Source: a virus. From it: a DNA stretch of 64,000 nt. The DNA is taken from the IMG/VR virus record IMGVR_UViG_3300032213_001531, positions 40,994-104,993 of that record; one strand, 5' to 3'. Every line of letters begins with the position of its first letter. Position 1 is the stretch's first letter. The notes beneath the pieces are model-generated. The model made no database searches. It had not been told where the DNA came from and saw only the letters and a program-made list of their open reading frames with translations. A program made the translations under genes and the position numbers. Of the stretch, positions 38,679 through 59,359 are shown one piece after another.

Positions 38679-38690
38679 TTGTTTCTCCCT

Positions 38691-39350
38691 TTAGTATCTA
38701 TTCTTTTCATAAAATCCTTTTTCTTTAATAAATCCAACCAAAACATATCTAATTGGTCCTGGACCTACATGTTTTACTCCATGATTATATTCTGCTGTGC
38801 CTGGAAAAATAAGCATTGATCCAGGATCAGGTTTAAACTCTAAACCATTGTTTGGAAAAAACAACTCTCCATCAACATAATCATTATTTAAATACAGAAT
38901 AGCAGCGTACCTAATTGATGGGTCTGTATCTTGATCTGTGTGAGCTTTTAACTCGACACCCTCTTGCATCCTTTGAATAGTTGCAAAACCACTTAACTCT
39001 ATGGTATCGTCAACATTTTGAACTAAATCATTTAGTCTATTAAAAAAATCTTTTTGAAATGAATGATTGCTAATGTTTAAATTTTTATCTTGCCAATTTT
39101 GAGTTATTTCAAATTTACCTTCAGCAACTAAATTATCAACATCATCTCTGCCAAATTTTTGCATACAAAAGTTTTTTAGGTTACCATGATACTCTACAAA
39201 CCACTCTTCATTGGGCGTTGTATTAATAATATCAAAAACTTTATCTAAATCTTCTTTAGAGAAAAAATCTTTTACCAACAAGACATCGTCAGTAATTTCT
39301 TCAATTTGAAAACTATTTTCCTCTAAAATGTTTTTTAAGAAGTTAGACAT
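38691..39350 (-). CDS. 2OG-Fe(II) oxygenase (P4H-like)
   Basis: HTD...YLNNDYVDGE...HGV...R. Confidence 0.9.
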   Translation of the reverse strand: MSNFLKNILEENSFQIEEITDDVLLVKDFFSKEDLDKVFDIINTTPNEEWFVEYHGNLKNFCMQKFGRDDVDNLVAEGKFEITQNWQDKNLNISNHSFQKDFFNRLNDLVQNVDDTIELSGFATIQRMQEGVELKAHTDQDTDPSIRYAAILYLNNDYVDGELFFPNNGLEFKPDPGSMLIFPGTAEYNHGVKHVGPGPIRYVLVGFIKEKGFYEKNRY

Positions 39351-40101
39351 TATTTCCTAAATCCTCAACTTTGTACTTGTTTCCATCAGCATCTAGCTTC
39401 CAACCTTCTTTTAAAAGATCTTGCCATTCAGCTCTTTCAATTTCTTGTTTAGCTCTAGTCTCTTTCATCTCTGCAGCCCAGGCATCTCTTAGCTCTTGTG
39501 GATAAGCATCTTCTTCTCTATCATCCCAGAAAGATCCTATAGTGTATCTTACTCCACTTTCTATTAATGATACTTCGTGCATATTGCTAAATCCCCCGTC
39601 AAAAACAGCAAGCATTCCAACTTCTGGTTTAATCTCTATGTTATGACTTGGAAACTTAAGCAGTCCCCCCTCAAAGTCATCGTTTAGATATAGGAACCCT
39701 GCATAACGACTTCTTGTAAAGGCTCCAGAATTTCCTTCAGCATCTGTGTTATCTGAATGAATTCTTGCGTATGCTCCTGGCTCCCATTTTTGAGTATGGT
39801 ATCCAATTTTAGAAATTGTTTTTGGATCAAGGTCATGTACTGAAGCAATTGCCTCTGGCATTGTTTTTTCAATGTCTGAAAAAATAGTTGGAGATAGTCC
39901 AGCGTCAAGCAATTCTTTATCGTTGTCTTGTGGCAGTACTGAAGAATATGACTCATAAAAAGAAATAGGCATCCAAGAAAGTGCACCATTATCTGCCTGA
40001 GCATCTAATGCTTGAATCATTTTTTTGCAATCTTCTTTACTTATAAAGTTCTTATAAATAACTATATCTTTTGTTAGTCTAACTTTATCGTTTAGGTTCA
40101 T
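39343..40101 (-). CDS. 2OG-Fe(II) oxygenase (P4H-like)
   Basis: HSD...YLNDDFEGG...HEV...R. Confidence 0.9.
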   Translation of the reverse strand: MNLNDKVRLTKDIVIYKNFISKEDCKKMIQALDAQADNGALSWMPISFYESYSSVLPQDNDKELLDAGLSPTIFSDIEKTMPEAIASVHDLDPKTISKIGYHTQKWEPGAYARIHSDNTDAEGNSGAFTRSRYAGFLYLNDDFEGGLLKFPSHNIEIKPEVGMLAVFDGGFSNMHEVSLIESGVRYTIGSFWDDREEDAYPQELRDAWAAEMKETRAKQEIERAEWQDLLKEGWKLDADGNKYKVEDLGNNV

Positions 40102-40985
40102 TGTATTCTTACTCCATTTTCTATTACAGCTCTTTGCGGATGCTTTAGTCTAAACTGCTCGTCTAAATCTTTTTGCATTTCCGCCCAAACATCTTTTCCA
40201 AACTCTTTTTCTTTTTCATACCAATCATCAGTTCCTTTTTGATATTTTTGCCAATACATTCTTGACAAGAACTTATTATTTTTATATGATGGCATAACTC
40301 CATGTAAATATGGTTTTCCTTCTTCTGTCAGATAGTCTGGGTGTCCTGATGGAAAAACTAAAACATCTCCTGCTTCTGGTTTATACTTTACAAGCTTATC
40401 TCCCATTGCAAAATCAATCTCGCCACCCTCGTAGTTATCATTAAAATATATTGTAGATGTTATTACAAACTTATATCCTGGAGTATGACCTTGCTCTCTT
40501 ATATAGTCTGAATGATAGTTCATTCCAACCGTACTATATTCATTGCTTACATGGTATTTGCCTATTGTTCCGCCAGCCCATCTCCAAGTTGGAATAGGAT
40601 TGCCATCATCGTCTATAGACATTGCATCTAAATCTACGTCTAAATTATGACTCTTGATATAGTCTTCTGTAGCTAAATAAAAATTGTCCATCATTTCAAT
40701 TACAAAGTTTTTATGATTTTCTTGCGTTTCTGTTGATGTTTCTACATCTTTCATATTTCCATATCTATCATTCATAGAGAATTGAGGAGTTATTGGATTT
40801 AAGTATTCTCCAAAAACAGACCAAGTGGTCCAAGGATTAAACAAACCGTCTTCTGTTTCCGATAAAGAATCTGTTAAAATTTTATAAGATTTTTCAATAT
40901 CTTTAAAAAGATTTTTGTACACAACAATATTTGGATATATTTCTATTGACTCAAGTTTATTATTGTTTGGCCAAGGATATGTCAT
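40098..40985 (-). CDS. 2OG-Fe(II) oxygenase (P4H-like)
   Basis: HSD...YFNDNYEGGE...HGV...K. Confidence 0.9.
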   Translation of the reverse strand: MTYPWPNNNKLESIEIYPNIVVYKNLFKDIEKSYKILTDSLSETEDGLFNPWTTWSVFGEYLNPITPQFSMNDRYGNMKDVETSTETQENHKNFVIEMMDNFYLATEDYIKSHNLDVDLDAMSIDDDGNPIPTWRWAGGTIGKYHVSNEYSTVGMNYHSDYIREQGHTPGYKFVITSTIYFNDNYEGGEIDFAMGDKLVKYKPEAGDVLVFPSGHPDYLTEEGKPYLHGVMPSYKNNKFLSRMYWQKYQKGTDDWYEKEKEFGKDVWAEMQKDLDEQFRLKHPQRAVIENGVRIQ

Positions 40986-41665
40986 TATGGTTGCCTATCT
41001 CCTGTATGCTTTGTAATTTCCCAGAAAAATGGGCATGTAAATCTTAGGCCACTTTTGATTTCAGTAACTCCATGAATATAGTTTTTATCTCCTGGGAAGA
41101 AGTATGCAGCTCCTTTTTTAGGCTTAAACTGCACACCTTGTAAAGGGAAGTATAGCTCTCCACCCTCATAGTCATCATTTAAATAAAACAAACTTGAAAG
41201 ATCATAGTTTGGAAAATCATTAGGGGTTCCAGCATCAGGTCCCTCGTGCAATTCTTTATCAGCATGAGGCTTTTGAAATTGTCCAGGAAGCCATTTAACA
41301 ATAGTTGTTCCAGTTGGATGAACCTCTACTTTGTAAAAATCTTCAACTATTGGCTTTAGTCTTTGAAACAAACCAGCAATAACTGGTGCAATTGTAGGGT
41401 CATTTTTATCTAAACTTGGAGTTGTTGCAACTCTATCTTTCCAATAGTCAGAATCGTAAGTAACAGTTCCATTTTCATTCATGTGGCTTTCGGTTACATC
41501 CCAAATTGTCAAAGATTTGGCAGCTTTTTCTAAAAACTCAATTTCTTCTTGAGTCATAAAATTTTCTAGCTCAACAATCATGTCTTTGCTATCTCCAAAC
41601 CAACCAGATGGAGTTATAGATGGTGTTCTTTTAACTACTGTGTACGACTCGTTATTTTGTTCCAT
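40985..41665 (-). CDS. 2OG-Fe(II) oxygenase (P4H-like)
   Basis: HAD...YLNDDYEGGE...HGV...R. Confidence 0.9.
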   Translation of the reverse strand: MEQNNESYTVVKRTPSITPSGWFGDSKDMIVELENFMTQEEIEFLEKAAKSLTIWDVTESHMNENGTVTYDSDYWKDRVATTPSLDKNDPTIAPVIAGLFQRLKPIVEDFYKVEVHPTGTTIVKWLPGQFQKPHADKELHEGPDAGTPNDFPNYDLSSLFYLNDDYEGGELYFPLQGVQFKPKKGAAYFFPGDKNYIHGVTEIKSGLRFTCPFFWEITKHTGDRQP

Positions 41666-41683
41666 GTTTTATTATACCATTTC

Positions 41684-42409
41684 CTATTCGTAGAATCTCT
41701 TAGTCCAGACTTCTTTTTGATAAACTCCGCCATCTGGGACACGATATTTTTTACTATTTTCTATATTATGATTCATCATTTCAGAAGCAGTTGGAACAGT
41801 TATTTCGGATTTCCAATCTTCCCTCAAAAATGGAAGCAACTGAGCATAAGGAGTTCCTGCTGGAAGAACTCCAGTCCAACCTTTTTGTACAAAAAATGGA
41901 AAAGATCCAGGCAAATTAACTTTGTCATTATCAATAATTCCAGAAACTGTCATAATTGGAAGATCGTATCTATTAAATGGGGCAACATATAAAACGCTAT
42001 AGCCATCTGGAACCTTTACTGCCCAATCTGGCATCCAAGCAAAATGATAATTATAGTATCCTTCTGGATGACGAAATTGTGGCATAGGAGTTCTTCTTGT
42101 AGCAAAATCTTTATACATTGGATCTTCAATTTTAACATCAATTTGCCCTGCGCCGTCAAGGAAAAATTCTATGTCACAGGGGGTTACAAGGCTATACCCC
42201 GTTGTCAAAATATCAAGAATTGCAGGACAGGCTTTCCATGTAGGGATCTTTCCCTTGTCTGGCCCTATCCAATATTCTCCATCTGGTTTTTTAGCAAATC
42301 TATCAGCTTCTTTATACCACTGTGGCATTGATCTTGAAATTGGTATTGGCTTTGATTTACTATCTTTACTTAGCCAAGGCCTATTAGTTATAAACTCAAT
42401 AATTTTCAT
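41684..42409 (-). CDS. conserved phage protein, DUF6065-related/dUTPase-like beta fold (putative)
   Basis: PQWYK, CPAILD..GY, SGIIDND, GTPYAQLLP. Confidence 0.55.
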   Translation of the reverse strand: MKIIEFITNRPWLSKDSKSKPIPISRSMPQWYKEADRFAKKPDGEYWIGPDKGKIPTWKACPAILDILTTGYSLVTPCDIEFFLDGAGQIDVKIEDPMYKDFATRRTPMPQFRHPEGYYNYHFAWMPDWAVKVPDGYSVLYVAPFNRYDLPIMTVSGIIDNDKVNLPGSFPFFVQKGWTGVLPAGTPYAQLLPFLREDWKSEITVPTASEMMNHNIENSKKYRVPDGGVYQKEVWTKRFYE

Positions 42410-43122
42410 TGTTCACTCTTTGTATTATCAATAACACTTAGCTTTAAATTTTTAACTTCATGAGATCCGACAGATTCGCCTTTTTCATTTACTGCATTTC
42501 TATACCAGTCTGTCCATTCACCTAATTTATTTATTTCTTGAGCAGCAGCTCCATAAGCGTTTACAGAATCACTATATTCTTGAGTATGAATAAAGTCAAC
42601 TATTTCAATTGACTCATCTTTTAAAGAAGTTAAAGATATAGGAATTATTGTTGCTACTGGAGTTCCTGCCTTAATGACAACTTCTTGATTAGGTATTCTG
42701 CATTTAATTGCTAATGGAAAATCAGTATTTAAAAATGAAGTTGAGATTAAAGAAGACATTACCTCAAAGTTTTCATTAAAATAATTTTGAGGAGTAATTG
42801 TCAATACGCTTATATCTTGAGCAGTTCTCAAAATAAAACCAGTATTAAAACTAATTGTAGATTGACCTCTACCAGTATAGACATATTCTTTACCTTCTAA
42901 AATTGTTACATTATCACCACTTGTATCATTTACACCATTCCAAATAAATTTTAAATCTATTGGCAAAGAAATGCTCCAGCCTATAACATTAGCAGAAGTT
43001 ACTGGATGACACCTATAGGCATGACCTTGAGGAGTTTCATCCATCCAATCTCTTTTAATTGACATTGGCTCTATATTTAATGCCATTGGTGTTTTTTTAT
43101 AAGCAGTGATAATTGACATCAT
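42406..43122 (-). CDS. DUF6065-like protein
   Basis: RDWMD...AYRCHPVTSANVIGW...GTPVATIIP; family name from recall. Confidence 0.6.
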   Translation of the reverse strand: MMSIITAYKKTPMALNIEPMSIKRDWMDETPQGHAYRCHPVTSANVIGWSISLPIDLKFIWNGVNDTSGDNVTILEGKEYVYTGRGQSTISFNTGFILRTAQDISVLTITPQNYFNENFEVMSSLISTSFLNTDFPLAIKCRIPNQEVVIKAGTPVATIIPISLTSLKDESIEIVDFIHTQEYSDSVNAYGAAAQEINKLGEWTDWYRNAVNEKGESVGSHEVKNLKLSVIDNTKSEQ

Positions 43123-43790
43123 GACCCAGTCTCTTGATACATCTCTGGAGTATGATACTTATCGCTATAGTCAAGCATTGTTACCAAAGAATACTTTGTT
43201 CCAGAGTGAACAACTTTAGCTTGATGTGGATACATAAAATTAGATGGGAACAATACAACATCTCCAGCTTTTGGAACATATGTAATTCCCTGAAGTCTAA
43301 AGAATAACTCTCCACCTTCAAAATTATCATTAATATAAGCAACTAAAGATAGTGTACAGTTATATGAAAATCCATGATCATGATGTTCCATAAAGTGTTG
43401 ACCAGGCTCATACTTAATATAATTAAAAGCTTCCCAGTATCTTAGGTTATTAATATTAAAGCGTCTGCAGTAATCTTCTACTGCTAACTTTTGTCTATCA
43501 TAACAGTCTTGCCAAATGCCCTGAAGTTTTAAGGAGTCTGGAGATACGTCTCTTTCAATGTCTGTTTTCTTAAATTTAAAATCAACGCAGTCTCTATACT
43601 CTGGCATTCTTTGTTGATAACCAACATAAGCTGGTTGCCAATTATAGTTTGGTCTGTCATTATTTAAAACCTCTTCCAACCTATCAATGATGTTTAATTC
43701 TGTTGGTAAAACGTCGTGGTAAACAAAAATTCCTGGAGCAATCTCTTCATAGCTACTCCAAGGTGCTGATGTTGTATTTTCTGTATTCAT
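43119..43790 (-). CDS. 2OG-Fe(II) oxygenase (P4H-like)
   Basis: HHDHG...YINDNFEGGE...PH...K. Confidence 0.9.
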   Translation of the reverse strand: MNTENTTSAPWSSYEEIAPGIFVYHDVLPTELNIIDRLEEVLNNDRPNYNWQPAYVGYQQRMPEYRDCVDFKFKKTDIERDVSPDSLKLQGIWQDCYDRQKLAVEDYCRRFNINNLRYWEAFNYIKYEPGQHFMEHHDHGFSYNCTLSLVAYINDNFEGGELFFRLQGITYVPKAGDVVLFPSNFMYPHQAKVVHSGTKYSLVTMLDYSDKYHTPEMYQETGS

Positions 43791-43803
43791 ATTTTCTCCT
43801 ATT

Positions 43804-44523
43804 TTAATTTCCTGTGTGACCTAAAAGATTAATGTCTGTCATAATGACAACACAGTATTTTGTTCCTGTTTTCATTGGCAAAGAAGCATGCTCATATATA
43901 TAGTTTGAAGGAAATATTGCTATATCTCCAACCTTTGGGGTATGAACAAAATTATCTAATCTTGGAAATTTAATTTCTCCACCTTCGTAATCATCATTAA
44001 TATAGATTACCGCAGAAACAGTACAATTATAAGCTGGACCATGATCGGCATGTATATTAAAATGAGTTCCTTCACCTTCATACTTTACAAAGTTAAATGC
44101 TTCATAATATGTAACATTTATCCCCCAGTAGTGTGCATAATCATCTATACACAATTTTAGTTTTTGATATATCTCTTCATGCAAATCAATCAAATCAGCA
44201 TTATGTTCATCTCTTGGACCAAGATTTTCTTGCTTATATTTAAAGTCTACAGCATCTCTTGCTTTTTTGATTGGAACAGTAGAGTTTGTTACCTGTGCTT
44301 CAGACCACTTATATTTATTATCCCCTGAAAGATTGTGCTCAAGAGTATTGATATATCTATCTGAATCATCTTTTGAAAAAACATTATGATAAATATTTAA
44401 ACCTAATCCTGGATTGCTAATCGAGATATTACTTTGAGGCATTAATCTTGAAATTCTTGTTGAGGCTGTTTCTGATCTATCTTTAGTAAACCAGTGATTA
44501 TCGTTTTCATCATATACTTGCAT
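43804..44523 (-). CDS. 2OG-Fe(II) oxygenase (P4H-like)
   Basis: Start MQVYDEN after AGGA; HADHG...YINDDYEGGE...EH...K; close paralog of 43119..43790. Confidence 0.9.
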   Translation of the reverse strand: MQVYDENDNHWFTKDRSETASTRISRLMPQSNISISNPGLGLNIYHNVFSKDDSDRYINTLEHNLSGDNKYKWSEAQVTNSTVPIKKARDAVDFKYKQENLGPRDEHNADLIDLHEEIYQKLKLCIDDYAHYWGINVTYYEAFNFVKYEGEGTHFNIHADHGPAYNCTVSAVIYINDDYEGGEIKFPRLDNFVHTPKVGDIAIFPSNYIYEHASLPMKTGTKYCVVIMTDINLLGHTGN

Positions 44524-44596
44524 GTGATTCCTATCTTTTAATGGTATGGTTTTATTATAGCATAAAAGTACTATTTGAAGCAAGATATAGCGAGTG

Positions 44597-44863
44597 TTAC
44601 CACTTATTGATAGGGCAAGTAGCGTGAGCCATTGTTGTTTTTATTTTCATAAAGCAGCCACATTTTTTACATTGAGATGTTAGTTTAATTAGTTCTGGAC
44701 AAGATTTGCATATATCAAATCTTTCTTTTGCAACTGATTCTTCAACATATTCAGTTTTTGGGTTTAATAAATCCCAAGGCTTTGCTGCTCTGTGTTTTTC
44801 TATATTTTCAACCATTTCTTTGTTGGCTTCTTTATAGACTTCCCAAGGTGTTTTTTCTGACAT
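44597..44863 (-). CDS. small Cys-rich metal-binding protein (DUF6171-like)
   Basis: RFDICKSCP...CKKCGCFM...ATCPINKW. Confidence 0.75.
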   Translation of the reverse strand: MSEKTPWEVYKEANKEMVENIEKHRAAKPWDLLNPKTEYVEESVAKERFDICKSCPELIKLTSQCKKCGCFMKIKTTMAHATCPINKW

Positions 44864-45284: not shown

Positions 45285-46283
45285 TTAGCAACCGCCACCA
45301 TCAAAGCATCCTGGGCTTGAGCAAGCTCCACCGCAACAGAACACTGTACAGAAGTTTGGTGAGCAACAGCTAGGAGAACATGATCCTCCGAAGCCATTAC
45401 ATGCTTGTGCAAAGTAAGGTGGGAAGAATGGGAATGAAGGTGGGAAGAATGGAGGGAAGAATGGTGGGAAGAACGGGAAGAACGGGAAGTAAGGGAAATA
45501 TGGTGGGAAGAACGGTGGGAAGAACGGTGGGAAGAAAGGTGGGAAGAACGGGAAGAATGGAGGGAAGAACGGTGGGAAGAATGGAGGGAAGAAAGGTGGG
45601 AAGAACGGGAAGAACGGGAAGAATGGTGGGAAAAATGGCGGGAAGAACGGGAAGAATGGTGGAAAGAATGGGGGAAAGAATGGAGACAAAGTAGTAATAG
45701 ATCCAGATGCAGGAGAAGCAGCGCTTGTACCATTAGCATTAGTTGCTGTAACTGTATAGGTTTGTGAAGTTCCAGCAGTATCTGCAATAACAATTGGAGA
45801 AGTAGCACCTGTTCCAGAAGTACCGTCAGATCCTGTTACAGTATAACCACTGATTGTCTTTCCACCAGTTGATGGGGCTGAAAAAGCAATTGAGTTTTGA
45901 TTTACGCCAGCTGTTGGAGTTGGAGCAGACATGGTTGCAGGAACTGTTGTTGCGGTAATAGAATCTGAAGCAGTTGAGGCTGCTGAAGTTCCAGCAGCAT
46001 TGCTTGCTGTTACAGTAAATGTATATGCAGTAGCAGACTGAAGTCCAGCTACAGTAATTGGAGAAGATGAACCAGTTCCAGTAAATCCTCCAGGACTAGA
46101 TGTTACAGTATAAGAAGTTGCTGCTGGAGATAGCGCAGGTAAAGAAAAAGATACTGTTGCAGCACCATTATTAAAGGCTCTTCCAGTTCCAACATCTGTT
46201 GCTGTTGCTCCTGTTGGTGCCAATGGCTCTAAAAAGTCATTTGATGCTTGTGACTTCTTACCTATTCTCTTACCTGATGCCAT
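45285..46283 (-). CDS. adhesin-like protein: two FN3 domains, (Pro/Phe) tract, 10-Cys C-terminal domain
   Basis: GLQSATAYTFTVTASNAAG and YTVTATNANG FN3 motifs; about 91-aa tract almost entirely P/F; CNGFGGSC...CFDGGGC end; GGAG RBS. Confidence 0.85.
   Translation of the reverse strand: MASGKRIGKKSQASNDFLEPLAPTGATATDVGTGRAFNNGAATVSFSLPALSPAATSYTVTSSPGGFTGTGSSSPITVAGLQSATAYTFTVTASNAAGTSAASTASDSITATTVPATMSAPTPTAGVNQNSIAFSAPSTGGKTISGYTVTGSDGTSGTGATSPIVIADTAGTSQTYTVTATNANGTSAASPASGSITTLSPFFPPFFPPFFPFFPPFFPPFFPFFPFFPPFFPPFFPPFFPPFFPFFPPFFPPFFPPFFPPYFPYFPFFPFFPPFFPPFFPPSFPFFPPYFAQACNGFGGSCSPSCCSPNFCTVFCCGGACSSPGCFDGGGC
45411..45683. repeat. degenerate 9/12-bp coding tandem repeat (PFF/PPFF)
   Basis: GGGAAGAA(C/T)GG(T/A) units. 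Confidence 0.95.
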
Positions 46284-46316
46284 TGTTAATCTCCTAATTT
46301 CTTATTGAATTTTGTA

Positions 46317-48701
46317 TTACGCTGTCAAGTCGCCAAAGACAACCCATGTATTTGCTGCTCTCTTAAAGAGAGTTGCAGATGACCATTGAGTTCTTAGCTT
46401 TAATCCTGGGGTTGAGTTAACTGTTACTCCAGTGTCTCCAGCAATTGTTACTTGTCCTGCTCCAGTTTGAAGAATATCAATAGATGTTCCTACTGGATAT
46501 GCTACTGCTGTATTTGTAGGGATTGTAATTGTTGTAGCTGTTGCTTTTGAAACTTCAATTAGTGAATCTCTTTCAGTTAATGCTGATAGTGTATAAGAAT
46601 CTGTTTTTTGAACAATTGGTGTCCGTGAAGGAACGCCTTCCTTTGTTTGTGTACCGTCTGTAAATGCTACACCTGAAGCAGAGGCTGTAATTAATCCTGA
46701 TGCTGTAAGTGCTGCTACGTTACTTGTACCAGTGAATGTTGGTGATGCAAGTGGAGCAAATCCTGAAATGCTTGCACCTGCAGGAATTGTTACTGTTCCA
46801 GTAAATGTAGGTGAAGCAATTGGGGCTTTTAGTCCAATTGAGGTTGTTAGTGTTGTAGATAAGTTTGCATCATTTCCAAGAGCGGTTGCAATTTCTCCAA
46901 GAGTGTCTAAAGTTGAAGTTGCGCTATTGACAAGTGCTGATATTTCTCCACGAACATAGGCAGTTGTTGCAACTTGTGTAGTGTTAGTTGTTGCTGCAGC
47001 CGTTGGTGCAGTAGGAGTGCCTGTAAGTGCTGGTGAAGCAAGAGGAGCAAATCCTGAAATTGATGCTCCTGCTGGAATTGTTACTGTTCCTGTGAATGTT
47101 GGAGATGCAAGTGGTGCTTTTGCAGTAAGGGCTGTATCAAGACCTGAAATTTTTGATGTTGCAATTGCTGCTGAAGAAGAAATATCTCCATCAACAATTG
47201 TTCCATCAAGAATCATTGTGCTTGTTACAGTGCCAGAAGGCAATGTTACAGTGCCTGTAAAGGTAGGTGAAGCTAATGGTGCTTTAGCATCTAATTGAGT
47301 CTGAATAGATGATGTAACTCCATCTAGATATCCAATTTCAACATCTGAAACATTGGCAACAGTTGCTTGCTTACCATTTAATTGTGTTTGGATAGATGAA
47401 GTAACTCCATCAACGTATCCTAATTCTGTTGAAGAAACAGTTGATGAAACTGCAAGCTTTGTCCAGTCAATTGCTGCTGCTGAATTTATATCGCTATTAA
47501 CAATTGTTCCAGCAACAATTTTTGCTGATGTAACTGAATCATCTCCAAGTTTAGCAGTAGTTACTGCACCGTCTGCAATCTTTCCAGTTGTTACTGATAA
47601 TCCACCAATTTCATTAGTTCCAACTGAATCATCTGACATCATTGATTGAGTAATTGTGTTTGCAGGTAGTGTTACTGTGCCTGTAAATGTTGGTGAGGCT
47701 AAAGGAGCTTTTGCATCAATTTGAGTTTGAATAGCTGAGGTAACTCCATCAAGGTATCCTAATTCAGTTGCTGAAAGGCCTACAATAACATCTTGCTTAT
47801 TATTTAGCTGTGTTTGAATAGCTGAGGTAACTCCATCAACATAGTTTAGTTCAACTGTAGATAAGGTTGCTCCATCAAGGATATTTAGCTCTGTAGCTGT
47901 TGCTGTAAGTGCTACTGCTTCATTAACAAGTGGGGAATTTACAGTTGCGGAAGTTAAAGTTTTATTAGTTAATGTTTCTGTTCCTGCAATTGTTGCTAAA
48001 TCAGCATCAGAAACTGCGGTATTAAACTGTGCAATTGTTCCACTTACTGTATTTGCATTTAAGTTAATAGTTTTATTTGATAATGTCTGGGTGCCGTCAG
48101 CAAGTACTACGGTACCTGTAGCATCTGGAAGTGTAATAGTTCTGTCTGCTGTTGGGTCTACAACAGTAAGGCTTGTTTCAAATGCGTTTGCTGTTAAACC
48201 TTCAAATTTAATTTCATTTTGAACATTAAGGATTGTACTATCAATAATAGTTGTTGTTCCTGATACTGTTAAGTCTCCTGATACTGTTACATTTCCGCTA
48301 CCGTCAGCAAGAAGAACTGTTCCTGTAGCATTAGGAATAGTAATAGTGCGATCAGCTGTTGGGTCTGTTACCTGTAAAGTTGTTTCAAATTCATTTGCTG
48401 TAGCGCCTTCAAAAACAACGCCAGTCTTTGTTAATACATTAAATGTAGCATCGAGTTCTGCAACTCCAGATGCTGCGCCTTTCTCTGTAAGAAGAATATA
48501 GTCGTCAAGAGATCCACCAAGGTCTTCAAGGTTTTTAAAATATGAAAGGTCGATCCAGTGACTAATTCCGTCACCAATTTTGAATTGACCAGTATCGCTT
48601 TCAAAACCAATTTCGCCAGCAGCGAGGATTGGACCATCTCCATTATTTAAAGAAATCCATTGCGCTGCAGTTCCTCTGCGCTGTTGCATTCTTGTTGCCA
48701 T
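46317..48701 (-). CDS. tail fibre protein (Mtd-N-like N-terminus)
   Basis: RRGTAAQW...GEIGFESDTGQFKIGDG; internal repeats APLASPTFTGTVT and GYxDGVTSxIQTQL; C-terminal WVVFGDLTA domain. Confidence 0.85.
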   Translation of the reverse strand: MATRMQQRRGTAAQWISLNNGDGPILAAGEIGFESDTGQFKIGDGISHWIDLSYFKNLEDLGGSLDDYILLTEKGAASGVAELDATFNVLTKTGVVFEGATANEFETTLQVTDPTADRTITIPNATGTVLLADGSGNVTVSGDLTVSGTTTIIDSTILNVQNEIKFEGLTANAFETSLTVVDPTADRTITLPDATGTVVLADGTQTLSNKTINLNANTVSGTIAQFNTAVSDADLATIAGTETLTNKTLTSATVNSPLVNEAVALTATATELNILDGATLSTVELNYVDGVTSAIQTQLNNKQDVIVGLSATELGYLDGVTSAIQTQIDAKAPLASPTFTGTVTLPANTITQSMMSDDSVGTNEIGGLSVTTGKIADGAVTTAKLGDDSVTSAKIVAGTIVNSDINSAAAIDWTKLAVSSTVSSTELGYVDGVTSSIQTQLNGKQATVANVSDVEIGYLDGVTSSIQTQLDAKAPLASPTFTGTVTLPSGTVTSTMILDGTIVDGDISSSAAIATSKISGLDTALTAKAPLASPTFTGTVTIPAGASISGFAPLASPALTGTPTAPTAAATTNTTQVATTAYVRGEISALVNSATSTLDTLGEIATALGNDANLSTTLTTSIGLKAPIASPTFTGTVTIPAGASISGFAPLASPTFTGTSNVAALTASGLITASASGVAFTDGTQTKEGVPSRTPIVQKTDSYTLSALTERDSLIEVSKATATTITIPTNTAVAYPVGTSIDILQTGAGQVTIAGDTGVTVNSTPGLKLRTQWSSATLFKRAANTWVVFGDLTA

Positions 48702-48754
48702 ATTCCACTCTCCTTATGGGTGCTGCCCATTGTTATATCTTATTATAACATCTT

Positions 48755-49213
48755 TTAATTAAAGTTATCCATTGATATTCCGCCATCCCATACTTCACTA
48801 AATAGTACTGTGTTGTATGTTGCTGTTTCTATCAAAGATCCTTCAGTATTATAACTTCCTGCTTCAACAAATATACTTGAAAGCAAACCATTTCCACCAA
48901 TTGAGGTATCATGAATATGCTCTTGTAGGAATTCTGCATCTGCAACATTTGCAAACGCTCTCCAACTGCTATTATAAAAAATATGAAGTCTATTAAAGAC
49001 TGTATCATAATATAATTGTCCATCTACTGGATCTGCAGGTGCTTCTGCTGCTCTTGGTACATTTGGTGCTTTAGTATCTACGTACCCTTTTGTTGCTGCG
49101 TGAGTACTTTCGGTTGGGGTAGCAACTACTACTGTTCCACCAAAGGAACCTCCGTTAGTTACGGATAACCCGTGTTTAACTTTAAAATCTTTAGTAGTAG
49201 TTGCCATTCCCAT
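48755..49213 (-). CDS. tail fibre-associated protein
   Basis: HAATKGYVD and DGQLYYDT fibre motifs; N-terminus similar to 49242..50978. Confidence 0.7.
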   Translation of the reverse strand: MGMATTTKDFKVKHGLSVTNGGSFGGTVVVATPTESTHAATKGYVDTKAPNVPRAAEAPADPVDGQLYYDTVFNRLHIFYNSSWRAFANVADAEFLQEHIHDTSIGGNGLLSSIFVEAGSYNTEGSLIETATYNTVLFSEVWDGGISMDNFN

Positions 49214-49241
49214 CCTCTTTTCTTTTTACTGTATTTTTAAA

Positions 49242-50978
49242 TTATGCTTCAACGTAAGTCTTGTGTAACTTAACTGAAGTGTCTGCTGCTGCAGCAGCTA
49301 CTGTAAGAACAACATTTCCAGCACTGTATGCTGCAGTAATTGTTCCAAGAGTAGCATTGCTAATTACGTTAGCATACTCTGTAATGTATACATTGTTTGC
49401 TCCGTCTACTGTTACAAGAATTTCACTTGTTTCAATATCCCCAGATTTTTTCATCTGAACTAAGTATTTAGCGCTTGAATAAGTTGTTGCTGACCATGTG
49501 TCAACTGTAGTTGCTGAAGTTCCAGCAGTTCCTGTTGCAGAACCAGCAAATGAGTCTGGGTATTCAACAGATGTAGCCTTTGCTGCTCCAAGTGTTGGAG
49601 TAACAAATGTTGGGCTATTTGTAAATGCTACAGTTGAAGATCCTGATTCATCAGTTAATGCTGATGCAAGGTTTGCAGAAGATGGTGTGGCAAGGAATGT
49701 GGCTACGCCAGTTCCAAGACCAGAAACATCATTTGCAATTCTTACTGTAAGTGTGTTGCTTGCGCCATCAATTGTCTTGTTTGTAAGAGTTTGTGTTGCA
49801 GCTGTTTCTAGTGTACCGTTTAGGTAAAATGCCTTACCAGAAGCAAGGTTAATGTGCTCAGATGAGGTCCATGCATCAGTTGCATCTACCCAGTTGAAAG
49901 TTTTATCTGTAGCACCCTTAAGAGTAATACCACCACCGTCAGCGCCTGCATCTGTTGGAGATGCTACTGAACCAAGTGTAAGGTTCTTATCATCAACTGT
50001 GATTTCTGTTGAGTTAATTGTAGTTGTTGTACCATTAACTGTTAGGTCCCCTGAAAGAACCAAAGATGTACCAGTTGCAGCACCAATATTTGGTGTTACA
50101 AGTGTTGGAGTATTAGCAAAAACAAGTGCTCCAGTACCAGTTTCATCAGAGATGATTCCAGCAAGTTCTGAAGAAGATGTTGATGCAAGTACGTTTAACT
50201 TATCTGTTGTTACAACAAGTGTCTTTGATGACGGGATAGTTGTACCGTTAACAGATGTAGCAGTAGCAACGCCAAGTGCTGGTGTTGTAAGTGTTGGGCT
50301 TGTAAGAGTCTTATTTGTAAGAGTCTGAGTATTTGTTGTTCCAACTACTGCACCAGTTGCGCCGTGTGCTTCTGTAAGGTTTGCGTGTGTTGATACATAT
50401 CCTGAAGCAGTTGATTCTGCTGCAGTCTGTGCTGATCCTGCTGCACCATAAGCATCATATGTATTTGGTGTTACTTTAATTTCACCTGTTGAATCTGTGT
50501 ATGTAAGTCCAGTTCCAACTGCGTTACCTACTGCATCTTGTGCTCGTTCATCTGTGAAGTAAAGGTTTGTTCCTTCTGATAATGAAGTTGTTGATGAAGG
50601 AATATCTGAAGTAAGTGCTACTGTACCAGTTGCATTTGGGAATGTGATTGTGCGATCTGCTGTTGGATCTACAATTGTAAGTGTAGTTTCAAAAGCATCG
50701 GCTGTTGCGCCCTCAAATGTAATTTCTGTTTGGAAGACACCAACAGCTGCTGGATCTGCCCATTGAACTCCGTATGTAGCACCTGATGCTGCTGTAAGGA
50801 CTTGACCATTTGAGCCAACGCCTAAACGAGCTACTGCATCATCTGCACTACCTACAATTAAATCACCCTTAGCATCAACGACGCCTGCTGTGATAATATT
50901 CTTGCCGTTAACGGTTGCAGATGAACCCTCAACGACGAGGCCATTCTTAATTCTAAAATCTTTATTTACTGTTGCCAT
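49242..50978 (-). CDS. tail fibre protein
   Basis: AKGDLIV, PTADRTITFP, TQTLTNKT repeats; Thr/Ala/Gly-rich. Confidence 0.8.
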   Translation of the reverse strand: MATVNKDFRIKNGLVVEGSSATVNGKNIITAGVVDAKGDLIVGSADDAVARLGVGSNGQVLTAASGATYGVQWADPAAVGVFQTEITFEGATADAFETTLTIVDPTADRTITFPNATGTVALTSDIPSSTTSLSEGTNLYFTDERAQDAVGNAVGTGLTYTDSTGEIKVTPNTYDAYGAAGSAQTAAESTASGYVSTHANLTEAHGATGAVVGTTNTQTLTNKTLTSPTLTTPALGVATATSVNGTTIPSSKTLVVTTDKLNVLASTSSSELAGIISDETGTGALVFANTPTLVTPNIGAATGTSLVLSGDLTVNGTTTTINSTEITVDDKNLTLGSVASPTDAGADGGGITLKGATDKTFNWVDATDAWTSSEHINLASGKAFYLNGTLETAATQTLTNKTIDGASNTLTVRIANDVSGLGTGVATFLATPSSANLASALTDESGSSTVAFTNSPTFVTPTLGAAKATSVEYPDSFAGSATGTAGTSATTVDTWSATTYSSAKYLVQMKKSGDIETSEILVTVDGANNVYITEYANVISNATLGTITAAYSAGNVVLTVAAAAADTSVKLHKTYVEA

Positions 50979-50994
50979 TTTTATATCTCCTTAG

Positions 50995-51441
50995 TTATGC
51001 CTTAAGTCCTGTGCGAGAATATCGTACAGTGACTGGCTTGATCGCTGGGTCTGGAGTGACTGATATAGCCACGGTATTTCCAGTGCGAGAAACATTAATG
51101 GTGCCAATATTCCCATCATTGTCGATTGTGCCATACTCATTAACAGATACATTTGATCCGTCAATAAGAATATCTAGTTTAGTTGCATAGAATTTATTAT
51201 CTCCTGCAGAAGTTTTTGAAATTGAAATAGAGTACGAGACTGATCTCCATGCTGTTGCATCAAAGCTGTCTATAGTTGTAGCATTCTCAATGCCATTAAT
51301 TGTGCTCTCATTATTACCCGCAGTGCCCAGATCTGTTGCCTGTGCTGAAGAGGTATCAATTAAATCTTCATAATTTTCTTGAGTAGGTCTATCTCCTGTT
51401 TGAAACAGGGCCTTTACGCTTGCAATTGATATTTTAGCCAT
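50995..51441 (-). CDS. virion structural protein
   Basis: FQTGDRPTQENYEDLID N-terminus; C-domain resembles C-terminus of 49242..50978. Confidence 0.65.
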   Translation of the reverse strand: MAKISIASVKALFQTGDRPTQENYEDLIDTSSAQATDLGTAGNNESTINGIENATTIDSFDATAWRSVSYSISISKTSAGDNKFYATKLDILIDGSNVSVNEYGTIDNDGNIGTINVSRTGNTVAISVTPDPAIKPVTVRYSRTGLKA

Positions 51442-51475
51442 GCTGTAATTATAACACCTATTTATAGTTATTTAA

Positions 51476-51697
51476 TTAGAGAATATAGTTGCTATAACCA
51501 ATTACTTGAAGCCCAATTCCTGGCGGATTACCAAATAAAGACTCTATCTGTATAGGAATAAACTTGACTCTAAAGGGAAGTATATCATTGACTACTGTTT
51601 GACGATTTTTATCTTCTATTTTTATAATTGAATAATTTATTGGATAAATACTTTTTGTTTTATTGTTTAATTCATCAAGTATTAATGCTCTGGCCAT
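51476..51697 (-). CDS. hypothetical protein
   Basis: TAATG-coupled ORF. Confidence 0.6.
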   Translation of the reverse strand: MARALILDELNNKTKSIYPINYSIIKIEDKNRQTVVNDILPFRVKFIPIQIESLFGNPPGIGLQVIGYSNYIL

Positions 51698-52101
51698 TAA
51701 TCTGTTACATCTTCAAGAATTCTCATTGCACCCTGAGCTACTGTCCAAACTCTTGTAGGGTCTGACAATTGAATATCAAAAATGTCTCCTGTTTGAAGAT
51801 TTTGAGATTGTGCTGCTTCAAGCCAAACTGTAAATTCTCCTGGACCATCATTTTGATCAGCAGCGGGAGTTAAAATCATAACTGTTGTAGCATCATCTGT
51901 AATAACTCCAAGATTAGCAACACTGTTCGGTCTTTTAATTTTCATACTAATATCCCAATCAGGAATATTTAAAGCAACTTTTGCATCATCTGTAGCATAG
52001 ACTCTAAAACCTGAAGTATCTCCACGAACTACAGTCCAAAGAACTGTTGGAGGTTTATTTCCAATGTCATAAGAGTTTGCTGATCCACGAGTAGTTGCCA
52101 T
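51697..52101 (-). CDS. BppU-N/Ig-like structural protein
   Basis: VVRGDT...FDIQL...WTVAQG; paralog of 56220 and 57454 genes. Confidence 0.6.
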   Translation of the reverse strand: MATTRGSANSYDIGNKPPTVLWTVVRGDTSGFRVYATDDAKVALNIPDWDISMKIKRPNSVANLGVITDDATTVMILTPAADQNDGPGEFTVWLEAAQSQNLQTGDIFDIQLSDPTRVWTVAQGAMRILEDVTD

Positions 52102-52119
52102 TTGTTTATTATATCACTA

Positions 52120-52641
52120 TTAGGCTAGTCCAGCCTTTAGTGCCCCCCATGTCCCGTTGCCTTTTGCCTCAACAATAATAATTCCAGATGAGGCTGCATG
52201 AGCTACAATTCCAACTGCACCAGAACCAGATGTTGGCCGTGTTGCTGTTAATCCACCAGACTCTGCAACATATAAAATATCTCCATTAGAAAAACCAGAA
52301 GTATTAATGTCTTCCATAACTCCTGCTACAACTGCAATACCTTCGGCATTGTTTGCTAAACTAGTTTTTAATAATCCTAAAATAGGAGATGTAGTTGTTG
52401 GAATTGCTTTTGAAACAGTTGTGACTGTAGTATATCCTGTTGCATATATTGGTGTTCCTGCTGAAAGTGTTGATCCCCCAGTATTTTTTACTTGAATTTG
52501 AAATTGAGATAATCCAAGTGGAGGTAAAATAATTTTTAATCTATCAGCTAATGCCTCAATGTCTCCGTGTACATTTACAGGATCTTCTGCAAGCGGGTAA
52601 GGTAAATTAAATAAACCATCATCTGTATTTCCAGTAGCCAT
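52120..52641 (-). CDS. virion structural protein
   Basis: Start MATGNTD; LPYP...DIEALA N-terminus; GDILYV...GGLTATRP. Confidence 0.65.
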   Translation of the reverse strand: MATGNTDDGLFNLPYPLAEDPVNVHGDIEALADRLKIILPPLGLSQFQIQVKNTGGSTLSAGTPIYATGYTTVTTVSKAIPTTTSPILGLLKTSLANNAEGIAVVAGVMEDINTSGFSNGDILYVAESGGLTATRPTSGSGAVGIVAHAASSGIIIVEAKGNGTWGALKAGLA

Positions 52642-52676
52642 AGTATATTTATTATACCACCTTCTGAACTGGGTGT

Positions 52677-52706
52677 TTGACTTTGACAATAAAATTATGC
52701 TATACT
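52677..52706 (+). promoter_or_regulatory. sigma70-type promoter for lytic transglycosylase
   Basis: TTGACT-18 nt-TATACT with TG extension; AAGGAGG RBS downstream. Confidence 0.7.
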
Positions 52707-52755
52707 TGGTAGTAACAACCCTGAAAAGGGTTTTTCGTTTCTAAGGAGGAAACAG

Positions 52756-53304
52756 ATGAACATAACACAAGATAAACAAAAACTCATCGGAATACTCACG
52801 ATTATAGTAATGGCAGCGCAGGGTTTAAATGTTGCTAATGCTAGTGAACGCAATAACTTAAGTACGGAAATTGTAGTGTCCGCAGATTCAGCCTCGCAAG
52901 AGGCTTTAAGTGTTTCTAAGGATAAAAAATTAAAAAAGTTTGAAAATAAGGGTTTTCTAACCGATGATGAACTCAAGGAACTTTTATACCTCGTTGGCTT
53001 TAGAGGCAACGATTTAAAGGAGGCTTGGGCAGTAGCCAAAAAAGAGTCTAATGGACAACCAATCAGATTTAATGGAAACACTAAGACTGGCGACAGCTCT
53101 TATGGAATGTTTCAAATTAATATGATTGGCGAACTGGGTCCTGATCGTCGAGATAAATTTAATCTTGATGCCAATTCAGATCTTTTAAATCCCGTTGTAA
53201 ATGCACAAATAGCATTTCATATGTCAGACGGTGGAAAAGATTGGTCTGCTTGGCATGGCATAACAGCTAAAACAAAAATGTGGATGAGTCGTTTTCCTAA
53301 TTAA
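52756..53304 (+). CDS. secreted/membrane-anchored lytic transglycosylase (SLT/lysozyme-like)
   Basis: N-terminal hydrophobic segment; AVAKKES catalytic Glu, SYGMFQIN, DWSAW. Confidence 0.85.
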   Translation: MNITQDKQKLIGILTIIVMAAQGLNVANASERNNLSTEIVVSADSASQEALSVSKDKKLKKFENKGFLTDDELKELLYLVGFRGNDLKEAWAVAKKESNGQPIRFNGNTKTGDSSYGMFQINMIGELGPDRRDKFNLDANSDLLNPVVNAQIAFHMSDGGKDWSAWHGITAKTKMWMSRFPN

Positions 53305-53319
53305 CATTTAAAAGTAAAG

Positions 53320-53349
53320 AACCCCTACCGTAAAAAGTAGGGGTTTTTT
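53320..53349. terminator. terminator between convergent genes
   Basis: AACCCCTAC/GTAGGGGTT stem with T-tract. Confidence 0.85.
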
Positions 53350-53360
53350 GTTTATTTAAA

Positions 53361-54422
53361 TTAACAGCTTCCTCCATCAAAACAACCAGGGTCTGAACAA
53401 CCAGAGCCACAACAGAATGTGGTACAGAATAATCCAGCACAACAATTTCCACAAGGTCCTCCAAACTCAGTACATGCTGCTGGAGCAAAATAAGGTGGGA
53501 AGAACGGTGCTGGTGCAAAGTAAGGAGGGAAGAACGGTGGGAAGAACGGTGCTGGTGCAAAGTAAGGTGGGAAGAACGGAGGGAAGAACGGTGCTGGTGC
53601 AAAGTAAGGAGGGAAGAATGGAGGGAAGAATGGTGACGGTCCACCTGGAGAACATGAAGGTCCAGTTGTGCCATAAATTAATGAATCTAAACATTCTCCA
53701 ATGTATGAACAGTATCCATTTCCAAGGTCACTTGAAGTACATTCCTTATAAAGCACTGTTGCAAAGTAAGGTGGGAAGAACGGTGGGAAGAACGGTGCTG
53801 GACCAAAGAACGGTGGGAAGAATGGAGGGAAGAATGGTGCTACTGCGTAGTTATGTGTAAATGTTATTGTTTGACTTGCTGCTCCAGGATTAACCGTAAT
53901 TGTGACGGTATAAGACTGAGCATTAACCATATTAACTAAATCGCCAGGCCAGGAAGCAGTATATGCTCCGTAGTTGTATAGTGATGGATAATTTGTAGCG
54001 CCATTGGTGGATGTATATAGATAATTAGCTATATTTGATCCAGTCCAAGAAAGAGTTCCAGTCGTTGTGCTATTAGCTGTATATGTAAGGTTTGAAATTG
54101 TTGCACTTGGCGTTGGAGTAAAGTAAGGTGGGAAGAATGGTGGGAAGAATGGTGGGAAGAATGGGAAGAATGGTGGTGCTACATAATTATAATAAACAAA
54201 ACTTACAGAAGATTGATAGTCAGCAAGTGTTCCTGATGTTGGTGTTTGAGACGCTACTTTATTTGATAAACCTGAATCCCCAGTATTTGTTGTAGAACTT
54301 GAAGAATAAGTTAAACCACTATTTGCAATTGCTGTTTGTGCTGCTGTATTTAATAGACCGATTAAGTTTGGTACTGCTACCATTCCTTTGGATGCTGCCC
54401 AACGGCCTATAAAACCCAGCAT
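53361..54422 (-). CDS. adhesin-like protein: PASTA domain, three Pro/Phe tracts, Ig/FN3-like domain, 4-Cys and 10-Cys domains
   Basis: VAVPNLIGL...KVASQTPTSG PASTA motif; (PFFP)n and APAPFFPPFFPPYF repeats; CTEFGGPC...CFDGGSC end. Confidence 0.85.
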   Translation of the reverse strand: MLGFIGRWAASKGMVAVPNLIGLLNTAAQTAIANSGLTYSSSSTTNTGDSGLSNKVASQTPTSGTLADYQSSVSFVYYNYVAPPFFPFFPPFFPPFFPPYFTPTPSATISNLTYTANSTTTGTLSWTGSNIANYLYTSTNGATNYPSLYNYGAYTASWPGDLVNMVNAQSYTVTITVNPGAASQTITFTHNYAVAPFFPPFFPPFFGPAPFFPPFFPPYFATVLYKECTSSDLGNGYCSYIGECLDSLIYGTTGPSCSPGGPSPFFPPFFPPYFAPAPFFPPFFPPYFAPAPFFPPFFPPYFAPAPFFPPYFAPAACTEFGGPCGNCCAGLFCTTFCCGSGCSDPGCFDGGSC

Positions 54423-54429
54423 ATGAAAC

Positions 54430-55056
54430 CTACGCTGTCAAATCGCCAATAAGAACCCAGGCATTGGTGTCTGTTTTAAAAATTGTACAACCTGAGTATC
54501 TTGCAGCAATTTTCTTATTTGAATTTTTGCTATAAATTGTAACAGCTACTGAAACTGGAGCTATTTCTGTTTGACCTGCGCCAATTTGAACAATGTCAAA
54601 TCTAGAACCTATTGGAAATGCAACACTAGCATTTGTTGGAATAGTGACTGTATTAGCAGTTCCAACATCCATTGTTACAGTTTTTCCAGCATCTGTTAAA
54701 GCAGCAGTATAACTTGCTGTTTTAGGTAGTAGTGTTGTAGCATCATTTAGTGATCTCCAAGCATTATCATAATATTGAAGCTCATTAATTTCATTACCGT
54801 TAGAGTTTTGACGAACAAAACAAACAATTCCATTTGTTGGAGATGGAAGTGCTGCGTCACGAGCAGCGGTATTTAAAAAGTTATTGACTCCTGCTTTAGC
54901 AGTTAAAACTTCAGTAAAACTAACGGCTGAACCAAAACTATGAGTTCCAGTCCAAGCGTAGTTTGCTCCAGTTGATGTTGTTCCCGCTACTGGATGCCAA
55001 GTAGATGTTGAATTTTGATAAACATATGCCACTTTTCCATTAGAACTAATTGTCAT
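54430..55056 (-). CDS. short tail fibre protein with WVLIGDLTA C-terminal domain
   Basis: C-domain homologous to that of 46317..48701. Confidence 0.75.
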   Translation of the reverse strand: MTISSNGKVAYVYQNSTSTWHPVAGTTSTGANYAWTGTHSFGSAVSFTEVLTAKAGVNNFLNTAARDAALPSPTNGIVCFVRQNSNGNEINELQYYDNAWRSLNDATTLLPKTASYTAALTDAGKTVTMDVGTANTVTIPTNASVAFPIGSRFDIVQIGAGQTEIAPVSVAVTIYSKNSNKKIAARYSGCTIFKTDTNAWVLIGDLTA

Positions 55057-58566: not shown

Positions 58567-58767
58567 ATGTCTGATGATGTAAAATTTAGTGACTTATTTG
58601 ATCCTTCGCAACCAAGGAGTGATAAAGATCTAATTGAACAAAGGTTAGCAATTTGTAACGAATGTCCATCTTTTAACAAACGATTAATTAAGTGTAGAGA
58701 GTGTGGATGTTTTATGGCATTAAAATCTACTTTACGTCAAGCTACATGTCCGTTAGGGAAATGGTAA
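58567..58767 (+). CDS. small Cys-rich metal-binding protein (paralog of 44597..44863)
   Basis: RLAICNECP...CRECGCFM...ATCPLGKW. Confidence 0.75.
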   Translation: MSDDVKFSDLFDPSQPRSDKDLIEQRLAICNECPSFNKRLIKCRECGCFMALKSTLRQATCPLGKW

Positions 58768-58768
58768 T

Positions 58769-59359
58769 ATGAAAATCAATAGAATTTCTCCAGACCTATA
58801 TGAGATTGAGGACTTTATTACAGTCGATCAACAAAAAGAGGTTTTAGATTTTGCATCAGGATTAGATGAAGAGCAATGGTGGCTATCATTTGATGATGAG
58901 TATAAAAAGGGTTTGTGGTATGGAAAACAATATAACGGTGAAAAAAATCCAGTATTTAAAGAGATAGACGATCAAATTAATAACCTATTTGAATCATTAC
59001 TATATGTAGGACAAGTAGCACTTCAAAGATATCACAAGGGTGATGCTATTCAAGAACATAGGGACTATTGGTTAAAGGATGAGCCATATCACATCAGATA
59101 CGGTATATGTTTATATTATAATGACGAGTATGCTGGAGGAGAACTTGAGTACTCAGAGTTAGGTATTGTACATAAGCCTAAATCTAGGTCTTTAGTTATG
59201 CATGGTGGTAATATCCTGCATAAGTCATTACCTGTTACTAATGATCTCCCCCGATATTTTTCAACATGCTTTGTAAGAGGATCAAAAGAAAGTCCAGTTC
59301 TTTTAAATAAAGAACTCTTTAGCGAAATAGAGGAACACGATGGATCAACGTATCAATGA
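58769..59359 (+). CDS. 2OG-Fe(II) oxygenase (P4H-like)
   Basis: HRD...YYNDEYAGGE...LH...R. Confidence 0.88.
   Translation: MKINRISPDLYEIEDFITVDQQKEVLDFASGLDEEQWWLSFDDEYKKGLWYGKQYNGEKNPVFKEIDDQINNLFESLLYVGQVALQRYHKGDAIQEHRDYWLKDEPYHIRYGICLYYNDEYAGGELEYSELGIVHKPKSRSLVMHGGNILHKSLPVTNDLPRYFSTCFVRGSKESPVLLNKELFSEIEEHDGSTYQ

Follow-up and report, generated by a model that had tools for sequence, protein, structure and literature searches.

We analysed a window of 64,000 nucleotides (nt), positions 40,994 to 104,993 of the IMG/VR virus record IMGVR_UViG_3300032213_001531, which is 105 kb in length and has an estimated completeness of 97%. On the minus strand of this window lie two copies of a two-gene unit, each consisting of a fibre gene and, directly downstream, a gene for a protein with proline/phenylalanine (P/F) repeats and a cysteine-rich end. 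The open reading frame (ORF) of fibre A (46317..48701, 794 amino acids (aa)) is followed by that of PF-A (45285..46283, 332 aa) after a gap of 33 nt containing an AGGAG ribosome-binding site, whilst fibre B (54430..55056, 208 aa) is followed by PF-B (53361..54422, 353 aa) after a gap of 7 nt. Both fibres end in ..W(V)..GDLTA, and their C-terminal domains of about 100 aa share 45% identity over 103 residues (E 6e-20). A sequence-only reading of this DNA had proposed just such a duplicated module, with both P/F genes immediately behind a fibre gene, and this is what we found.

The two fibres differ greatly in length. Fibre A is made up of an Mtd_N-like N-terminal domain (Pfam, 3.2e-11), a variable repeat shaft and the conserved C-terminal domain (about residues 694-794; 46320..46622, minus strand), hereafter the GDLTA domain. 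The protein matched many tail-fibre PHROGs, and its GDLTA domain matched phrog_21978, phrog_8780 and phrog_16053. In the shaft, the motif PLASPTFTGTVT(L/I)P occurs at least five times, alongside several ..YLDGVTS.IQTQL.. units. Fibre B is a stub, with an anchor-like N-terminal half joined to a GDLTA domain (residues 106-208; 54433..54741, minus strand). Fibre B was modelled with AlphaFold2 (AF2) from an alignment of 39 sequences, namely fibre B itself, 33 relatives, the fibre A domain and four fused forms described below (mean column identity 50%). The model has a mean predicted local distance difference test score (pLDDT) of 84.7, rising to 94-97 in residues 106-206, which are predicted to fold as an XD1-type beta-sandwich.

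The partner proteins are strings of modules. PF-A comprises an N-terminal peptide, two FN3 domains, a 91-aa P/F tract and a tail with ten cysteines. The fn3 family (PF00041) was recognised by Pfam at 34.8 bits against a cut-off of 25 bits, and AF2 predicts two beta-sandwich domains of this type with pLDDT 90-98. The N-terminal peptide (residues 1-22; 46218..46283, minus strand) has the motif ..KK.GKKSQASNDFLEP.. and is a candidate docking element: K5, G8, N15, D16, F17 and P20 are invariant in 51 sequences, and in the AF2 model it does not pack on the FN3 domain and has pLDDT 54-71. PF-B begins with a different peptide (ML.F..WASSKGMV.VP) and a PASTA-like domain (together residues 1-76; 54195..54422, minus strand), the latter scoring 22.3 bits with PASTA (PF03793), just below the cut-off of 23.2 bits. 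There follow, on the same strand, a P/F linker, a beta-domain, a second P/F linker, a module with four cysteines and further P/F linkers (53487..54176, with seven P/F runs in all, in 54120-54176, 53763-53837 and 53487-53633), before a 10-Cys tail. No PHROG family was matched by either protein, and Pfam gave only fn3 and the borderline PASTA. Among 78 non-redundant partners, Pfam recognised PASTA in 44 (best E 2.1e-15) and fn3 in 28.

Scans of IMG/VR with six search patterns recovered 171 related loci, and a script survey found 165 ORFs with a GDLTA domain, most of them ending in GDLTA, GDLIA, GDLKA or GDLSA. The next gene nearly always has one of two conserved N-termini. Type A partners, with the PF-A peptide and FN3, stand behind long fibres, and type B partners, with the PF-B peptide and PASTA, behind short ones, where the gap is 7-9 nt. 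An ORF ending in W..GDLxA directly precedes 63 of 66 non-redundant PF-A-type genes; a 64th differs only in having G for W, and the other two are tandem second copies. A survey of the genes that follow GDLTA-ending fibres had been suggested on the sequence alone, and it bears out the pairing as more than chance, with 64/66 type A genes behind such a fibre. Two loci carry tandem PF-A-type genes behind one GDLTA fibre (L026:4217-6972 and L071:5117-6939), and in L026 a DUF6171 gene lies between them.

The conservation of these proteins is highly uneven. In 46 full-length long relatives (425-960 aa), identity to fibre A is 0.74 over residues 1-40, 0.06-0.46 in the shaft and 0.75-0.82 over residues 681-794, which hold the GDLTA domain. 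For PF-A, compared with 52 non-redundant relatives, identity is 0.61-0.83 up to residue 200 but falls to 0.07-0.11 in the tail. For PF-B, with 46 non-redundant relatives, the values are 0.41-0.55 over the first 80 residues and 0.04-0.28 beyond. Therefore the GDLTA domain and the N-terminal half of the partner form one conserved island, flanked by the variable shaft on one side and by a hypervariable distal end on the other. As far as sequence goes, such an island would be the expected look of a co-adapted junction, and it would also be compatible with inheritance in one lineage. Moreover, in a tree of GDLTA domains the long-fibre and short-fibre clades are separate and match the partner type, a pattern in which co-evolution and inheritance are inseparable.

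In-frame fusions occur in six related loci on five contigs, in four architectures (L136; L166, L168 and L169; L167; L171). In these, a fibre-B-like protein runs on into a (PTPVA)n, (TP)n or Thr-rich linker, then into Cys-containing modules and finally into the kinds of tail that are found on separate partners. A Pfam scan of one fused protein of each architecture (L136, L166, L167 and L171) found no PASTA, and after the fused genes of L136, L166, L169, L167 and L171 the next gene is not of the PASTA type. The covalent link thus takes the place of the N-terminal peptide and PASTA. To judge from these gene arrangements, the fusions are the best available argument that peptide and PASTA would normally attach the partner to the GDLTA protein.

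The tails of the two partners are alike. Those of PF-A (45288..45401, minus strand) and PF-B (53364..53474, minus strand) both have ten cysteines, the last residue being one of them. Aligned alone, they share 63% identity over 38 residues (E 3.6e-9), and a longer alignment that includes them gives 55% over 78 residues (E 1e-5, with composition adjustment). Their cysteine spacing is almost equal, with a single gap off by one residue. As both tips have the same 10-Cys scaffold, the two appendages of this phage should differ in reach and not in tip type. Of the proposal that the module provides long and short appendages with different tips, the lengths therefore hold and the different tips do not. 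AF2 gave pLDDT below 50 for the PF-A tail; the PF-B tail is 90% identical to a tail in one related locus (L009). Searches with the 10-Cys tail, for which a knottin or inhibitor cystine knot was considered, found no sequence match in the PDB or Pfam. In the fetched loci this scaffold recurs in just two further distinct tails, one in L009 and one common to L030-L032.

Other relatives carry other ends. Cysteine is the last residue in 37/98 non-redundant partners, at an overall Cys frequency of 2.2%, and 18/98 end in the motif ..HN. The latter tails are a domain of about 160 residues in which the first Cys and an Asn in the penultimate region are invariant and after which come 1-5 residues, and a profile of this domain matched the bacterial intein-like (BIL) domain 2LWY (1.3e-6, the best PDB match) and mini-inteins. 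In about a fifth of the relatives, an intein-like (Hint) domain takes the place of the Cys tail. Such Hint/BIL tails stand directly after the repeat linker, for example at L066:6787-7266, L056:6874-7365, L121:7030-7587 and L136:5995-8025. Tails also resemble each other across the two loci of a genome: the type A and type B tails are homologous in 12/19 non-redundant genomes, some of which are related to one another, against 86/342 pairs between genomes, a level that was not attained in any of 10,000 permutations for the within-genome count. One gene in the PF-B position (L097:3237-4604, genome G021) encodes FN3 domains 65% identical to those of PF-A and no PASTA, so that shuffling between the two loci extends to N-terminal modules.

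Taken together, we give a probability of roughly one half to the view that these units are two paralogous two-part receptor-recognition appendages, in which a conserved chassis bears a separately encoded, cassette-like distal protein with a P/F spacer and an exchangeable Cys-knot end. Each unit would have a trimeric proximal part, a long fibre in A and a short anchor stub in B, that ends in the XD1-type GDLTA domain. The product of the downstream gene would be built like beads on a string, its N-terminal peptide and first domain (the two FN3 domains in PF-A, PASTA in PF-B) holding on to or beside the GDLTA domain. A linker of Pro-rich repeats, in this phage the P/F tract, would push a small exchangeable end-module outwards, and this module, here a putative 10-Cys knot ending in Cys, would be the fast-evolving, host-facing part, which recombination would swap from phage to phage as well as from one locus to the other within a genome. 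The observations comprise homology and adjacency, the way in which conservation is distributed, the existence of fusions and the folds of the globular modules; from these we infer that the partner docks physically, is present in the virion and touches the host with its tip. The original idea of a fibre with a separately encoded distal protein may stand in this form, with adjacency, the junction island, the hypervariable C-termini and the in-frame fusions speaking for it; its P/F scaffold, its different tips and its relation to gp38 do not.

Several observations weigh against this arrangement. The partner has no trimerisation motif, and domains such as FN3 and PASTA also characterise free decoration proteins and proteins that bind the cell wall. 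Since a single related phage lineage supplied all of the loci, synteny and matching tails are partly inheritance. Moreover, among longer homologues in a large protein collection the GDLTA domain is at the extreme C-terminus in 88/97, the usual place of a receptor-binding domain, and internal in 9/97, some having two copies. The fold of the domain is a further such point. The best match to the GDLTA model (residues 106-206) is the capsid-spike C-terminal domain of Pa223 (9ny6_C; VIA Z 14.4, root-mean-square deviation 1.8 Å over 96 residues), and it also superposes on CBA120 tailspike protein TSP4 (residues 79-184, Z 9.2), CpaA (Z 8.5), T4 gp9 (residues 64-165, Z 8.4), T4 gp10 (residues 48-149, Z 8.2) and StcE (Z 6.5), at a sequence identity to XD1 structures of only 8-19%. 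The predicted model shows the nine-strand beta-sandwich of the gp9 middle domain and of TSP4 XD1, with 88-96 residues aligned at 1.8-3.1 Å and Z 8.2-14.4. The known homologues of XD1 are exactly the proteins superposed here, and in gp9, gp10 and TSP4 this module is a spacer that does not bind trimeric partners, docking being the task of XD2 and XD3 (PMC8825819). CpaA and StcE, by contrast, use the XD1 fold for glycan binding (PMC8825819). Therefore the fold gives no support to docking and lets the GDLTA domain be a binding knob itself. We had considered the domain as a T4 gp10-like branching domain, but the argument was withdrawn, since the matches fall on XD1 segments (PMC8825819) and none on XD2 or XD3. 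On the predicted model, the fold is neutral on docking, and the GDLTA domain may itself bind wall glycans.

The explanation that comes next is that the GDLTA domain is the distal glycan- or wall-binding knob, and that the partners are independent appendages or decorations on the baseplate, tail or capsid, adjacent to it through the clustering of fibre genes. We regard this as the main rival, though a distinctly less likely one. The capsid-spike match, glycan binding by XD1 with no known trimer-docking surface and the terminal position of the domain all suit it, as does the frequency of FN3/Ig-like domains in decoration proteins. In addition, 243 cultured-phage records, 223 of them from Gordonia phages, have minor tail proteins that close with the GDLTA domain and lack a P/F partner, one downstream gene having been translated. 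However, in the in-frame fusions the variable modules come right after GDLTA. A GDLTA domain that determined the host range should also vary more than the tails encoded behind it, whereas it is the domain that is conserved and the tails that are hypervariable, and 64/66 type A genes adjoin a GDLTA fibre despite heavy recombination of shaft and tail. Fibre B alone would be anchor and spacer with nothing distal. Its model (residues 58-206) superposes on residues 49-197 of a baseplate chain of Klebsiella phage KP1 (Z 10.7), and as modelled it looks incomplete, an anchor-like domain and an XD1 like the N-terminal stub of larger tailspike or baseplate proteins (PMC8825819).

The two-part appendage has its closest known counterparts in two systems, and it lacks a defining feature of each. 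In the branched receptor-binding protein (RBP) complexes of Klebsiella phages KP32, K11 and KP34 (RBP1 with a branching domain, RBP2 with a conserved peptide), a family validated in PMC13352976, and of CBA120 (TSP1-4), a conserved element of the second protein docks on a conserved domain of the first (PMC13352976, PMC8825819). As there, a fibre or spike gene is followed by a second gene, here after 7-33 nt, encoding a protein that is conserved in a short N-terminal element and exchangeable further out, and fibre B resembles the anchor-plus-XD1 stub of TSP4. However, docking in branched RBPs takes place on XD2/XD3 jellyrolls ahead of the enzymatic body of the first protein, whereas the conserved domain here is of the XD1 type and terminal, with no distal body. 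XD1 modules of gp9, gp10 and TSP4 are internal, whilst GDLTA is normally the last domain of its chain. Moreover, the second protein of a branched RBP is a trimeric tailspike, and here it is a linker-rich string of small modules. Because the fold is XD1 and neutral on docking, we did not assign the unit to the branched-RBP family, although it may work like one.

The second system is that of phages T2 and S16, in which fibre gp37 is capped by the adhesin gp38. The gene for gp38 lies directly downstream, and in its product the part used for attachment is conserved whilst the parts that touch the host are hypervariable. The present unit shares the separately encoded downstream protein, a conserved, putative attachment part and the hypervariable parts, but the partners show no sequence or family match to gp38, no glycine-rich motifs, P/F repeats that are spacer-like and a predicted Gram-positive host. 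The likeness to gp38 and its polyglycine-II motifs that had been drawn at first has therefore no counterpart in the sequence, nor in PHROGs or Pfam. The intein-like ends have their own parallels. BIL/Hint domains are known in variable bacterial surface proteins and polymorphic toxins, and in the relatives they would stand at the extreme C-terminus of a putative fibre-tip protein; the proteins of the window itself carry the putative Cys knot instead.

The partners might also have no structural role. They could be released or host-directed wall-binding proteins, which the PASTA homology would suit, or substrates of a neighbouring cluster of 2OG-Fe(II) oxygenase genes. Within 37278-44863 and 58567-59359, mostly downstream of PF-A, the window holds seven 2OG-FeII_Oxy_3, two DUF6171, one DUF6065 and one short-chain dehydrogenase gene. 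On the 3' side of PF-A are a 114-aa gene, DUF6171, 2OG-FeII_Oxy_3 genes, the DUF6065 gene with an unassigned neighbour of similar size, and the short-chain dehydrogenase. Nevertheless, we think a non-structural role improbable, since the N-terminus is not like a signal peptide, the genes sit among fibre genes and fusions to a fibre-type protein exist. In addition, loci with P/F and loci without it are followed equally often by oxygenase or DUF6171 genes, which are present in 25 PASTA-type loci that lack P/F, and these enzymes are therefore not dedicated to the P/F tract, an idea that we rejected. They could act on Pro-rich partner proteins generally. In two loci of the window, a DUF6171 mini-protein is encoded immediately upstream of an oxygenase gene.

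A bolder idea, and an improbable one, is that the end-modules are reactive. A free C-terminal Cys and the Hint tails would then stand for thiol/thioester chemistry at the fibre tip, either as a covalent bond to the actinobacterial wall or as a cross-link within the phage's own tip, with linkers possibly hydroxylated by the neighbouring prolyl-hydroxylase-like oxygenases. The 114-aa gene was considered as a conserved small third partner and rejected, because a homologue follows in just 12/96 loci and PF-B has no paralogue of it behind it. Tail type and the type of the next gene showed no significant association (adjusted mutual information 0.126, against a shuffle maximum of 0.168).

Lastly, we consider the P/F tract itself. 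In PF-A (residues 200-291; 45411..45686, minus strand) it consists of PPFF and PFF units encoded by an imperfect 12-nt tandem repeat (73% matches), whilst the DNA of the PF-B region has tandem repeats of 12, 30 and 42 nt. Phenylalanine codons in the tract are TTC 41 : TTT 4, against TTC 59 : TTT 306 in a set of eight further genes from this AT-rich phage, and CCG for proline is likewise enriched in the tract. The preference for TTC may serve to avoid long, slippage-prone runs of T. The tract was present in 49/52 sampled type A relatives, a sample biased toward P/F by the search itself, in which P/F words made up two of the six patterns, and in about 10/46 type B relatives. It varies between 0 and 181 aa in length, also among phages that have the same tail, and other relatives have TP, VTP, PTPVA, FSPFG or INT repeats at the same position. 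AF2 predicts coil for the tract (pLDDT 54-72), which leaves a polyproline-II rod neither shown nor excluded. A search of a large protein collection with the tract and tail returned only unnamed metagenomic proteins, whose recorded domains were mostly FN3 and once PASTA. The literature on PPFF-type repeats yielded nothing relevant.

A polyproline-II scaffold that is itself the receptor-binding surface, comparable to the polyglycine-II sandwich of gp38, would explain why the tract is kept in frame, with protein-level selection, wobble variation and strong use of TTC, and why it is so frequent among type A relatives. That frequency comes from the biased sample, however, and a binding scaffold accords poorly with a tract that varies in length beside the same tail, that other repeats can replace, that in PF-B is split into seven short runs between globular modules and that has no ordered structure in AF2. 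For these reasons the tract fits a spacer, and it is best read as an optional, length-variable linker. The claim that it forms the scaffold of an adhesin was not borne out, 36/46 PASTA-type relatives doing without it, and we consider a receptor-binding scaffold very improbable. Equally hard to sustain is a role of the partners as chaperones of tail-fibre assembly like Tfa or T4 gp38, which would fold the GDLTA fibres without staying in the virion: they are encoded directly downstream of the fibre and translationally close to it, as chaperones are, but they are multi-domain proteins of 200-620 aa with long linkers and hypervariable ends set against a conserved presumed substrate domain, they occur in fused forms, and they match no tail-fibre-assembly family in PHROGs or Pfam.

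The host of this phage is probably an actinobacterium. Outside the window, the genome encodes a WhiB-like protein (G000:C1:16527-16700; 46.6 bits, above the Pfam cut-off), and WhiB is a key indicator for phages of Actinobacteria (PMC10202952). A Gram-positive host fits the PASTA domain and the GDLTA domain shared with Gordonia minor tail proteins. Metagenomic phages that encode WhiB include viruses of abundant freshwater Actinobacteria that are hard to culture. If two-part appendages are what these units form, the family would be a host-recognition apparatus that can be read from sequence, with fibre, GDLTA domain and partner N-terminus as its conserved chassis and the tip as its cassette, and this picture could serve to track the turnover of host range in metagenomes. 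It would also bring unusual building blocks to phage tails, namely P/F polymers of up to 181 residues, putative Cys knots ending in Cys and C-terminal intein-like domains.

Neither megablast of the whole region nor tblastn of PF-B matched cultured-phage records, from which the record's own lineage was possibly masked. In the Gordonia phages StorminNorm and Ohgeesy and in PhiJL001, the gene for a GDLTA-ending tail protein has another gene directly downstream. StorminNorm gp40, the sole downstream gene translated among cultured phages, showed no resemblance to the P/F proteins. The window has a guanine-plus-cytosine content of about 36%, and from 1 to 58 kb nearly all of its genes are on the minus strand. 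The block around both units is rich in fibre-like genes, one of them with collagen repeats. Right after PF-B, and on the plus strand amid this minus-strand block, lies an SLT_3 lysozyme-like gene (52756-53304, 1.8e-14). Downstream of the head genes, a single ORF of 3613 aa occupies 10784-21625 on the minus strand.

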